NCBI GenBank assembly: GCA_965277025.1
Contig: OZ255706.1
Coordinates: 3,893,504 to 3,957,503, forward strand
Length of the DNA: 64,000 nucleotides
Source of the DNA: Methylomarinum sp.
GTDB lineage: Bacteria > Pseudomonadota > Gammaproteobacteria > Methylococcales > Methylomonadaceae
Direction: 5' to 3'
Part shown: positions 3,001 through 6,000 of the stretch, piece after piece
Layout of the letters: every line of letters starts with the position of its first letter
How positions within the stretch are numbered: position 1 is the first letter of the stretch
Made by a program: the position numbers

Positions 3001-6000
3001 CCTGATCCTGAAGCTTGCCTTCAGCCTTTTTCCGCGCCCGTCGCTGTTCCCAATGGCACCGGAACCGTCCAGCCCGGGATTCAAACAATACCTCGGCATA
3101 ACATTCCCCGGTCTGGCGGGACATAATCTCGTTACTGCTTTTTGTGATTTTTCCAAGCCTTGGTGTTGCGCCATACAAAGCCAGACAGATCGCATCCAGA
3201 ACGGTTGATTTACCCACACCGGTTGGGCCGGTCAGAGCAAAGATGCCATTGGACGCATATTCCGGATCAGTAAAGTCTATAACCCACTCACCGTAAAGAG
3301 AGTTGAGGTTTTTAAATCGGAGTTCCAGGATTTTCATAGTTTCTTAAACCACTAATGAACACGAATAGACACGAATATTGTTCATAGTACTATTCGTTCC
3401 CATTCGAGTTTCGCATGTTTAAAATTGAGAATGACTCCAACACGAAGACCTGTGATCTTAAGGTAATTGATTACCTGTCCACGTTCCACATCTGTAATTC
3501 GATCAATGGTTTTTGTTTCCACAATTACCTTTTTGAAGGCTATGAGGTCTGGAATATATTCCCCCACCTGAACAGATTTATAAATAACCGGGAATCGAGG
3601 TTGTTGGACATAGGGAATCCTTTGTTGCTGAAATTCCACGCTCAATGCATTCTCATAAGGCTTTTCCAGCAATCCATGACCAAGCGTATTTAAAACCTCC
3701 ATGGCGCACCCCACCACCTGATACACTTCTTCCTTCAATAACAATTCGTGTTTATTCGTGTTCATTCGTGGTTCCTTTTTGGATTATTCCGCATTGGCAT
3801 CCTCTTCCTGAAGCATTGTGATGATTTCTTGATAGGCGTTTATCAGTTCGTCCCGATCTTCATCTGGCACTTCAAAAACATCCAGACAGCGAACAAATAC
3901 ATCATTCGGGTCCAGATCATCCAGCGTTTCATCTTCTGTGATGGAATGGATAACGCGCTCCATGATCCGTCTGTTTTTAATGCGCCGGATTTCCATGGCA
4001 GAATTGGCCAATACTTCTTCGAGCATCTCACGCAAATTGCCGATAATATCGCTACCGGTATATTCGATCTCAAGCCATGCAGCGCTTTCTTCCTTTTTCA
4101 TCTCCTCCAGCCTGGCATGGATATCATCCAGCGATCCGACAATACGGACCATCTCCTGAAAACACGGTACCGGGAGTTCCTGGATATTTGGCGTGGTGCC
4201 GTTGAATTCAACAAGCACAACCTTCTTTTCCTGAGTCGCTTCGCCAAAACCCATCGGAATTGGCGAACCACAGTAACGGATATGTTCCATGCTGCCGACC
4301 GCCTGGGGCACATGCAGATGTCCCAGCGCCAAATAATCAATCCTTGAAGGAAAGACATCTTGTTCCACATGCGCCAGTGAACCGACGTAAAGCTCCCTGA
4401 CACCATCCCCTTCCACTGTTTTACCGCCTGCTGTAAAAAGATGTCCCATGGCGACAATGGGAATATCCGTATATCCGCTTTTTTCAAACTCAGTCCGTTT
4501 CTGCTCCGCCACTTTGCAGACAGCGGCATAGTGTTGCTTCAAGCCCTCAACCAGCTTGGCATTTTTATCATCGATTGTTTCTCCCGGTTCCACTGTTCGT
4601 AACTCTTTATCGCGCAAATAAGGCACTGCACAGACGATGGCTTCTGGCTGTTCGCCGTTATAAAGCACAATAACTTCCTCCTCCGGCTTTTCCATTGCCT
4701 CCCCAACCACATACACATTCAAGACCTGTAATAAGGCTTTAGGCGCATCGAGAAATGATGGCGAATCGTGGTTCCCGGCAATCACAACCACATGCCGACA
4801 ACATGATTTGGCAACCGTGTAAAGAAAACGATAATAAAGTTCCTGTGCCCGGTTACTGGGCGTGCTGGTATCAAACACGTCACCGGCAACAAGCAGCGCA
4901 TCGACCTTTTCCTCTTCAATGGTCTGAGCCAGCCAATCCAGAAATGCGGCAAATTCTTCATAGCGTTTCCGACCGTAAAGGGAGCGGCCTAAATGCCAGT
5001 CTGAGGTGTGGAGGATTTTCATCGAGCCGCCATTTCTGTTTGAGGTTCTACAGCAGTTTCCTCAGTCACGCCGATACTTTTAAGTAAGGCCGAATACTGG
5101 TCCGGATCTTTACTCTTTATTCTTTCCAGAATAGATTTTGCTACTGATTGCATTTCCGGGACCTCCACAGGTGTTGATCCCCGTTCGAAGACACCAGCTA
5201 AATGAGAGTATTCGTTGTTAATCCTATCCGTCAGAACAGTCGGAATACTCTCTTCCCCAAAGAAAGACTGAAGTGTTTCTTGAGTCATGCCTTGATCAGG
5301 GTATTTGTAGTACAGATAGATTTCAAAAAATTTTCTGGCATTATTTCCAAAGTTATAAAAGGTGGTGTAGTTATCATCATTTATTGAATTAATAGATGCA
5401 CACTTGTGAATCTGATGGAATAAAAAATTGAATTCGGTGACGTAGTCCCTCAGGTATCGTGGCATCAATGTAATGTTACTGACTTGATCCGTTCGGGTGA
5501 TAATGAAGTATTGGGATTTTTTTTTGTTCAAAGCACCGGGAAGCCGCTTCAGGTATTTTAAAAAGTCCAAGTTGTGAGTCGAAATAAACAGCTGCTTAAA
5601 ACGATCACGTTCTTTTAACTCTCCGCCATCTTCATATTTCTCAGGCGTTACAATCTCGGCATTGATAAGGCTGTAGACAAAAAAGATATGGTTTGCATCC
5701 AAGCTGGAAATGGGATCATCAATCCAGATAATCGGCTGATTGCCTTTAGTCTCTATGTCTTCAAGCTTGGCCATGAAATAACAGAAAGCTATCAGGCTGC
5801 ATTCTCCCTCACTGAGGTGGAATGCTTTTTTGTCGTTTCGAGTTATCTCAAACCGGTATACAGATGACGCATCTTCAGGGTTTTCTTCAATGGCTTTGAG
5901 TGTGAGAGACTGGTGACCGAAAAAATTGTTCAGATAATCGTTTACCCGATCAGCTCCTTTGCTCTCATCTTTTAACTGGGCCTTCAGTTCAGCGATCTTT

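Follow-up and report, generated by a model that had tools for sequence, protein, structure and literature searches.

On the minus strand of a 64,000-nt stretch of a Methylomarinum sp. genome (assembly GCA_965277025.1, contig OZ255706.1, positions 3,893,504 to 3,957,503; this whole stretch is called the window), three co-directional open reading frames (ORFs) follow one another in the region 3100-4000: sbcD, a small gene for a 127-aa protein of the GxxExxY family, and sbcC. The small gene (gene 1) lies in the loop of a palindrome, and gene and palindrome together form a unit of about 430 bp, here called cassette 1. The two arms, 30 nt each and 367 nt apart, are 93% complementary in a repeat search; at 28/30 they are the best 30-nt inverted repeat in 3300-3830, where 300 shuffles give a mean of 18.4 and a maximum of 22. 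In gene sense the 5' arm (L) reads AACCACGAAT GAACACGAAT AAACACGAAT and the 3' arm (R), as its reverse complement, AACCACTAAT GAACACGAAT AGACACGAAT; the two are not identical. The ATG of gene 1 falls inside the 5' arm, so that the first seven codons are arm-encoded and the protein begins MNTNKHE, and a Shine-Dalgarno-like (SD-like) AAGGA (3773-3777) stands immediately 5' of the arm. The sbcD stop codon (3784-3786) is 10 nt from the 5' arm; the 3' arm begins 5 nt past the stop of gene 1 and terminates 9 nt ahead of the sbcC ATG (3335-3337). The last codons of gene 1 (EWERIV, 3390-3411) are able to pair locally with the 3' arm. A motif of two arm units has 8 matches in the 64-kb window against 0.42 expected. 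A preliminary description of this DNA had claimed inverted arms of about 30 bp made of three 10-nt units, one supplying the start codon and the other following the stop just before sbcC, and the arm sequences, the 9-nt gap and the shuffle control bear it out.

Gene 1 encodes a minimal predicted nuclease of the RecB/Cas4-like PD-(D/E)XK type with the core alpha-beta-beta-beta-alpha-beta. The protein scores 133.5 bits against TIGR04256 (cut-off 35, 4e-39) and 124.9 bits against PF13366 (PDDEXK_3; cut-off 22, 3e-36), its sole Pfam match. Across 45 sequences, residues E34, D73, K85, Q97 and Y101 never vary, and position 83 holds either E or D. An AlphaFold2 model (predicted local distance difference test score 93) has its top Foldseek matches in lambda exonuclease, the Cas4 proteins SSO0001 and Pcal_0546, and the AddAB nuclease, with weaker matches to Hjc, I-Bth0305I and the tRNA-splicing endonuclease. 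A sequence search of the PDB finds no close relative with a solved structure, a search of cultured phages finds no match, and a search of plasmids finds only homologues less than 40% identical. Pfam and fold comparison reveal no HUH/Y1 transposase domain in the protein, nor do profile searches reveal a DDE-type or other known transposase. The family is large (10,744 clusters at 50% identity among 1.84 billion representatives, many of them fragments), and its function is given as "Unknown" by Steczkiewicz et al. 2012 (PMC3424549). None of the literature mentions of GxxExxY or PF13366 concerns repeats. We rate the element as apparently undescribed because the literature gave no description of an association between gene and arms.

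The unit is one copy of a widespread family of palindrome-bounded cassettes, mobile both horizontally and within genomes, whose derivatives resemble miniature inverted-repeat transposable elements (MITEs). Relatives of the gene 1 protein at 68-87% identity occur in Verrucomicrobia, Chlorobi, Bacteroidota, Desulfobacterota, Spirochaetia, Acidobacteria and Planctomycetes, and also in Gamma- and Zetaproteobacteria, Nitrospirae, Methylomirabilota and others. At 80 genome loci nearly all genes start inside GGAACCACGAATGGACACGAATAAACACGAAT, and ...ATTCGTGnnnATTCGTGnnCATTCGTGGTTC follows the gene. Taking as the arm test an inverted repeat of at least 17/20 that links the gene start to the region past the stop, 65 of 77 loci from more than 12 phyla have arms, and none of 77 does when the downstream regions are shuffled. 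A second subfamily, with 9-nt units, was drawn from 80 metagenome loci and gives 50/68 (shuffles 1/68). The suggestion that GxxExxY flanks be compared across genomes has therefore been answered by a strong enrichment of cognate inverted repeat arrays. The theme has variants: a third subfamily is present in one locus (L178; L-numbers label the compared loci or contigs), two viral contigs (L219, L220) have arms with ACGGAATA and CGCGAAA units, a Treponema member has a single 13-nt repeat, and the repeats of a Fusobacteria copy are direct rather than inverted. A Bacteroides finegoldii copy, between radA and the gene of a FAD-dependent protein, is bounded by TTCACCACAGAGGACGCAGAGGACACGGAGG ... CTCTGTGACCTCTGTGTCCTCTGTGGTGAA (27/31), with units CACAGAGGA.

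Arms are built as inverted arrays of short iterons. In 66 non-redundant cassettes, Watson-Crick pairing reaches 94-100% in the cores between -8 and +22 relative to the ATG, falls to 61% at -9 and is random beyond both ends; each arm comprises three cores of 8 nt, with 2-nt spacers between them that pair poorly. The terminal inverted repeats end sharply at the outer AACCAC/GTGGTT, where AAC/GTT form the last base pairs and pairing is lost one base beyond. Positions -1, +10 and +20 covary between the arms (A:T 53-54, G:C 10-12), as do -2, +9 and +19, and an arm complements its own partner better than shuffled partners in 5000/5000 permutations. The six units of one cassette change together, all being CACGAAT, CACAGAT, CGCGAAT or CACAAAT (in the second subfamily CACGAAA, CACGGAA or CGCGAAA). 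Such concerted change is not needed for a plain stem. It fits recognition of each unit by one factor, or homogenisation of the units. The distances between L and R arms are bimodal and form two classes, 50-150 and 400-550 nt. Where further arrays lie close to a cassette, their core type agrees with that of the cassette at 55 of 70 loci (40.9 expected, P<1e-4). Only two protein residues, 14 and 18, track the arm type, and since both lie near the 5' arm, linkage between protein and arm is possible for them.

Comparison of loci shows the cassettes being gained, lost and replaced as units. In Desulfovibrio desulfuricans and others (L088-L090), whose sbcD is 80% identical to that of the window, the site is empty and sbcD and sbcC are only 11 nt apart. 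The preliminary description had placed the unit between two normally adjacent genes, disrupting neither, and had called for a search for empty junctions; such junctions exist, and both genes of the window are intact. The same junction is filled in the window and in L087, L030, L032, L034, L019, L053, L015 and L042, and in Chlorobium (L091-L093) RhuM occupies it. A replacement is seen in L087, which matches window positions 1-10698 at 96.7% overall and at 98-100% per 50 nt on both flanks of the cassette. The cassette itself drops to 54-76% identity, with the drop located at the arms; its units are of the CACAGAT type, and its start codon is gone. The nine cassettes at this junction are polyphyletic, representing several lineages. 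The closest relative of the window copy (86%) lies in a BREX (bacteriophage exclusion) operon, between a SNF2 helicase gene and pglZ, the L087 and L053 cassettes are closest to copies in other contexts, and cassette and flank phylogenies disagree.

Movement within a genome is seen in Candidatus Versatilivorator, where three copies, 94-97% identical over about 560-600 nt, occupy unrelated loci, each beginning at the stop codon (CTAG) of the upstream gene. These copies (L027, L049, L063, 3871-4000) also have in common a 120-nt leader 5' of the 5' arm, with a palindrome, TTGACAAATGAGTCAA, that looks promoter- or operator-like; a similar motif recurs downstream of L049. Cassettes decay as well, to internally deleted copies and to hairpins that have no gene. 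L177 carries at sbcD|sbcC a cassette reduced by internal deletion to about 150 bp, and a tandem array in a Spirochaetaceae locus (L018, 3379-4942) holds at least six copies, most internally deleted and each with both arms. Hairpins also occur in frame inside genes: in L177 and L178 solo hairpins stand at the same sbcD codon and encode EPQMDTNEHK...ISVNSCSFVVQ and PQISQMDADK...ICENLRNLRIT, and another lies in a helicase (L025). As a side observation, the sbcD homologue P0219 contains an in-frame insert, LSACGHAQAG, which other homologues lack and which probably represents another family of short palindromic inserts.

Cassettes lodge between co-directional genes without breaking them, mostly in the orientation of the flanking operon genes between which they are wedged. 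Often the cassette supplies the stop codon of the upstream gene as well as its own ribosome site and start codon: at 17 loci the reading frame of the upstream gene extends into the 5' arm, where a TAA or TGA of the arm ends it. The genes on either side (52 upstream and 52 downstream neighbours) are mostly subunits of type I and III restriction-modification (RM) systems, BREX PglZ/BrxL/SNF2, SbcC/SbcD, RhuM and Fic; among neighbours that have Pfam matches, RM, BREX, SbcCD, RhuM or Fic genes make up about two thirds. Housekeeping genes are a minority, and cassettes adjoin histidine kinases, acetate kinase, radA and others. No recombinase family occurs among the 104 neighbours scanned, in a survey that included no search of the window aimed at IntI/attI. 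RhuM genes share two junction types with the cassettes, sbcD|sbcC and mod|res. At one locus (L001, Desulfobacter postgatei CM001488.1 1759533-1765928) the cassette stands between a 249-aa HsdM-like ORF and a Fic gene, beside smpB, and the methylase ORF ends with a stop codon that shares bases with the arm (gggATGAAACCAC).

The window itself contains a defence island of a type III RM system, PDC-S06 (AAA_13) and then SbcCD; PADLOC profiles match the type III RM system and PDC-S06, and neither GxxExxY protein of the window matches a PADLOC defence profile. The block at 74-12920 is co-directional with overlapping stops and starts and comprises type III mod/res, PDC-S06, sbcD and sbcC, to which L087 adds DUF6880. 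The sbcD of the window is 76-82% identical to homologues across Desulfovibrio, Chlorobium, Acidobacteria, Chlamydiales and Francisellaceae, and because such identity spans distant taxa this gene seems to belong to a mobile defence island and not to a housekeeping SbcCD.

Table 1. Cassettes, hairpins, arms and adjoining genes in the window
Feature	Position	Strand	Remarks
sbcD	3784..5022	-	upstream neighbour, intact; model NF008206
sbcC	74..3337	-	downstream neighbour, intact; model NF007600
GxxExxY / PDDEXK_3 gene, 127 aa (gene 1)	3382..3765	-	TIGR04256 and PF13366; motifs E34, D73, E83-x-K85, Q97xxxY101
5' arm (L), cassette 1	3744..3773	-	three 10-nt units, start codon, codons 1-7
3' arm (R), cassette 1	3347..3376	-	inverted copy of 5' arm, 28/30
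Arm-like stretch within last codons (LEWERIV)	3390..3411	-	repeat search
Second GxxExxY gene, 130 aa (gene 2)	10702..11094	-	about 39% identical to first; phmmer of all window ORFs; between type III mod and res
5' arm, cassette 2	11070..11091	-	two 9-nt units; overlaps start of gene 2
Complete hairpin right after gene 2 stop	10603..10702	-	9-nt CACGAAA units; L' arm 10674-10702, loop, R arm 10603-10640
Gene-less solo hairpin	11200..11286	-	same 9-nt CACGAAA units; arms 11259-11286 and 11200-11227
Remnant of RhuM 3' end (about 40 nt)	11095..11135	-	just upstream of cassette 2; RhuM intact here in L087
Degenerate orphan arm, no partner	35912..35944	+	AACCACGAAT GGACATGAAT GGATACAAAT

The window holds a second cassette (Table 1). 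Gene 2 begins ATG AACCACGAA CCACACGAA, and the R arm of the hairpin that follows its stop has four CACGAAA units, the hairpin ending 17 nt before the res ATG. At this position L087 has only the hairpin and no gene, and gene 2 is therefore seen to lie between direct copies (L and L') of one arm. Nearby, the stop codon of mod overlaps the first base of the solo hairpin. Read on the minus strand, the degenerate orphan arm stands 13 nt upstream of the ATG of an ORF at 34408..35901.

Other features of the window are recorded for their own sake. The mod ORF (11286-12920, minus strand) has a TTG start and aligns only from position 109 of a 621-position type III methyltransferase profile; the ORF may lack its 5' part or have it disrupted. 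A 20-nt palindrome, GGGCAATTCATGAATTGCCC, has four exact copies, at 11496, 11742, 13149 and 13532, of which two are in frame in the type III mod ORF and encode the peptide GAIHELP twice; these copies are a second, unrelated family of in-frame palindromic inserts. Several tandem repeats, 21, 27, 288 and 360 nt in period, lie inside a single ORF of 5391 aa (37250-53425, minus strand).

The whole of these observations can be read as follows, at what we consider an even chance of being right: a gene for a nuclease of about 125 aa occupies the loop of a palindromic element, and the nuclease acts on the arms of that element by a homing-like route. The element consists of the RecB/Cas4-like PD-(D/E)XK gene and of arms in which iterons of 9-10 nt, each with an 8-nt core plus a 2-nt spacer, are arrayed in inverted orientation; these arms would be the sites on which the nuclease acts. 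Most likely the nuclease would break DNA at an arm pair from which its gene is absent, either a solo hairpin or a resident foreign cassette, and host recombination would repair the break from a filled copy, by way of the 31-nt arms or of short flanking homology. Recombination between directly repeated copies of an arm could add or remove the gene. A bolder version, which we offer tentatively and think somewhat doubtful, would make this a new class of autonomous mobile element and possibly the smallest known (about 430 bp), in which a mini-nuclease recognises arrays of the element's 9-10-nt iterons and invades palindromes without a gene, or rival cassettes, by homing, with the 31-nt arms as homology, the iterons in phages and host genes forming a shared "landing-pad" network that links phages and defence islands across phyla.

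Several observations weigh against the homing-like reading. Movement driven by the nuclease is something we infer from sequence, and binding or cutting of the arms by the protein is a predicted step in it; the top fold matches are weak (template modelling score about 0.5, E about 1e-3). Different arm types are found with proteins as much as 91% identical, and so specificity, if there is any, rests on few residues. Some family members have other arm arrangements (e.g. R-gene-R) or an N-terminus that is not arm-encoded, so that the arm-encoded peptide is dispensable; classing arrangements by regular expression was too strict for reliable fractions and is used here only qualitatively. The swap in L087 could stem from ordinary homologous exchange between strains. 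At L083 the order is L-RhuM-L-GxxExxY-L-loop-R, with the start codon of RhuM within an L arm. An arm-first scan of IMG/VR, in which arm sites were sought and then their surroundings, found 55 distinct arm sites and no GxxExxY gene following any of them (0/55), and 35 of the 43 testable sites are orphan arrays without a partner within 700 nt. Finally, no target-site duplication is present around the copy in the window, those at sbcD|sbcC or the three in Versatilivorator, a comparison in which filled and empty sites are only about 80% identical and short duplications could be masked. Because none was seen, one proposal of the preliminary description, a minimal transposon of the terminal-inverted-repeat type, is not established; its suggestion of a mobile element is upheld by the swap, the several lineages at one site, the three-copy genome, the deleted derivatives and the solo hairpins.

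The viral contigs bear on an alternative that is possible, if unlikely: that the arms are a generic mobile or recombinogenic module run by other machinery (some recombinase or transposase, functions of phages, or simple repeat-to-repeat recombination), with GxxExxY as its commonest passenger and perhaps a defence nuclease. GxxExxY genes are rare in IMG/VR (2 loci), gene-less arms are common there, and at 17 sites an ATG within the arm opens an ORF of at least 60 aa; roughly a dozen of them, coding for unrelated proteins, begin with an arm-encoded peptide of the MNTNKH type (an NlpC/P60-like protein in L197, L202 and L218 is one example with an arm-supplied start). Orphan arrays on the phage contigs (AACCACGAATnnACACGAATnnACAC..., L179-L218) stand upstream of phage genes, up to five per contig, and some phage-contig hairpins join arms of different types (L188, L191). 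Orphan arms in the window and inside mod ORFs, the RhuM gene at the Chlorobium junction, and the L083 array, which resembles cassettes stacked at one site, would suit passengers on such a module. However, the tie between family and iterons spans subfamilies that are no more than 30-40% identical and each have an arm sequence and a unit length of their own, which is hard to expect of a passive passenger. The largest size class of L..R pairs, at 400-550 nt, nearly always encloses GxxExxY, the non-matching ORFs being mostly antisense reads of the same cassettes, and no recombinase gene recurs beside cassettes in the neighbour census. The idea of cargo and the two alternatives that follow, acting on RNA or in defence, are not mutually exclusive.

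It is rather unlikely that the element works at the level of RNA, with a stem of about 30 bp around the ORF in the operon transcript masking the ribosome site, or being cut by RNase III as in the intervening sequences of 23S rRNA, so as to set the expression of the cassette and the downstream gene, and with spread by ordinary horizontal transfer. The predicted minimum-free-energy RNA structure does pair L with R (z = -3.1), L/R pairs covary, the SD-like sequence and ATG fall within the arm, and the position of most cassettes between co-oriented operon genes would suit this reading. Yet G:T and A:C mismatches in the cores are equally common (34 vs 26), so that the transcribed strand shows no sign of wobble tolerance, a comparison that says little either way and does not prefer an RNA stem over a DNA repeat. 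A stem needs no common sequence in the three units of an arm, yet the units change in concert; orphan arms and direct-repeat forms (L-gene-L', R-gene-R) are unable to make one; and the swaps, the polyphyly at one site and the in-frame solo hairpins are left unexplained. Rfam covariance models over window positions 1-13000 give only chance-level matches, far below gathering scores, and no family match. An intrinsic terminator was considered and rejected: the arms are AT-rich and A-rich sequence follows, and the arm is not a terminator because no T-run comes after it. An improbable further explanation has the nuclease as a partner or back-up effector of RM, BREX or SbcCD, with arms that serve as operators of its own control or mimic targeted phage iterons. 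The preponderance of defence genes among the neighbours, the make-up of the window island and the presence of the same iterons in phage contigs speak for it; against it, the gene is absent from PADLOC models, cassettes also stand beside kinase genes, radA and others, hosts manage without the gene (sites are empty or hold decayed copies), and an operator copy at the 3' end has no obvious use. Chance similarity, or shared ancestry of one sbcD-X-sbcC operon, could be suggested by the several loci with the order sbcD-GxxExxY-sbcC; it is refuted by the shuffle controls, by the same arms in dozens of unrelated contexts and by the conflict of cassette and flank phylogenies, and keeps next to no probability.

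Known systems share parts of this design. One is the pairing of RAYTs (REP-associated tyrosine transposases) with REP (repetitive extragenic palindromic) sequences in REPtrons and REPINs: a small nuclease-type gene is flanked by inverted short repeats that are also dispersed as gene-less hairpin doublets, and the repeat type tends to match the nearby gene. RAYTs are HUH/Y1 transposases, single-copy and vertically inherited, and REPs are single palindromes, whereas the cassette protein is RecB/Cas4-like PD-(D/E)XK, its arms are arrays of 9-10-nt iterons, and its gene is multi-copy, crosses phyla and sits inside operons. The earlier proposal of a non-HUH analogue of RAYT/REP holds as to layout only, the protein fold being RecB/Cas4-like and not HUH. 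MITEs with their autonomous parents, and the Rickettsia palindromic elements, likewise have terminal inverted repeats, gene-less deleted derivatives of about 80-150 bp (compare L177 and the solo hairpins) and in-frame insertions in coding sequence (sbcD in L177 and L178, the helicase in L025); cassettes differ in that neither a DDE transposase nor a target-site duplication is seen and that some 430 bp encode a 127-aa nuclease. Free-standing homing endonuclease genes (phage T4 seg/mob with "intronless homing"; the PD-(D/E)XK enzyme I-Ssp6803I) also place a small nuclease gene between conserved neighbours, with filled and empty alleles and replacement at one junction in near-identical backbones, and the cassette protein has its weak fold similarity to I-Bth0305I. 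Unlike cassettes, these genes have no inverted repeats of their own at their borders, and cleavage by the cassette protein is only predicted; its recognition of host flanks is unlikely, because closely related cassette proteins occupy many unrelated junctions.

Integron cassettes resemble the present ones in combining a small promoter-less ORF with an imperfect palindrome of about 60-100 nt, in co-directional insertion, in stacked arrays (as in L083) and in placing a gene between direct copies of one arm (L-gene-L'-loop-R). They differ in that AAC/GTT stands here at the outer tips of arms that are iteron arrays, not in 7-bp R''/R' boxes, and that no IntI/attI platform is evident, these cassettes lying inside ordinary operons. 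An attC site was rejected on the same ground: with AAC/GTT as the outermost paired bases, no R'' (RYYYAAC) and R' (GTTRRRY) boxes are found. Intervening sequences of 23S rRNA with an ORF (S23p, a four-helix bundle), whose distribution is patchy and horizontal, have a small ORF between inverted repeats able to form a long stem in the transcript, but the protein family is another and the cassette's host transcript is an mRNA rather than an rRNA. Elements of the IS200/IS605 group are also very small, with a protein of about 130 aa and structured ends; their HUH transposase, subterminal hairpin at each end and tetra- or pentanucleotide target are not seen in the cassette, which has one large palindrome. 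The element, for which the literature searched holds no description, combines traits of REP/RAYT systems, MITEs and homing genes, and there is a real chance that it represents a new class.

For the GxxExxY family, which lacked a known role, the tie to a defined DNA element provides a testable role for the first time. It also explains an annotation nuisance: the odd N-terminal HE/TN/TK peptides, the short "hypothetical" ORFs and the stretches inserted in frame into defence genes. In RM, BREX and SbcCD operons, the spacers between genes are exchanged in the form of cassettes. Should the nuclease be what drives the movement, it would be a new enzyme class among DNA mobilisers, and the cassette would be a tiny, sequence-addressed insertion module.

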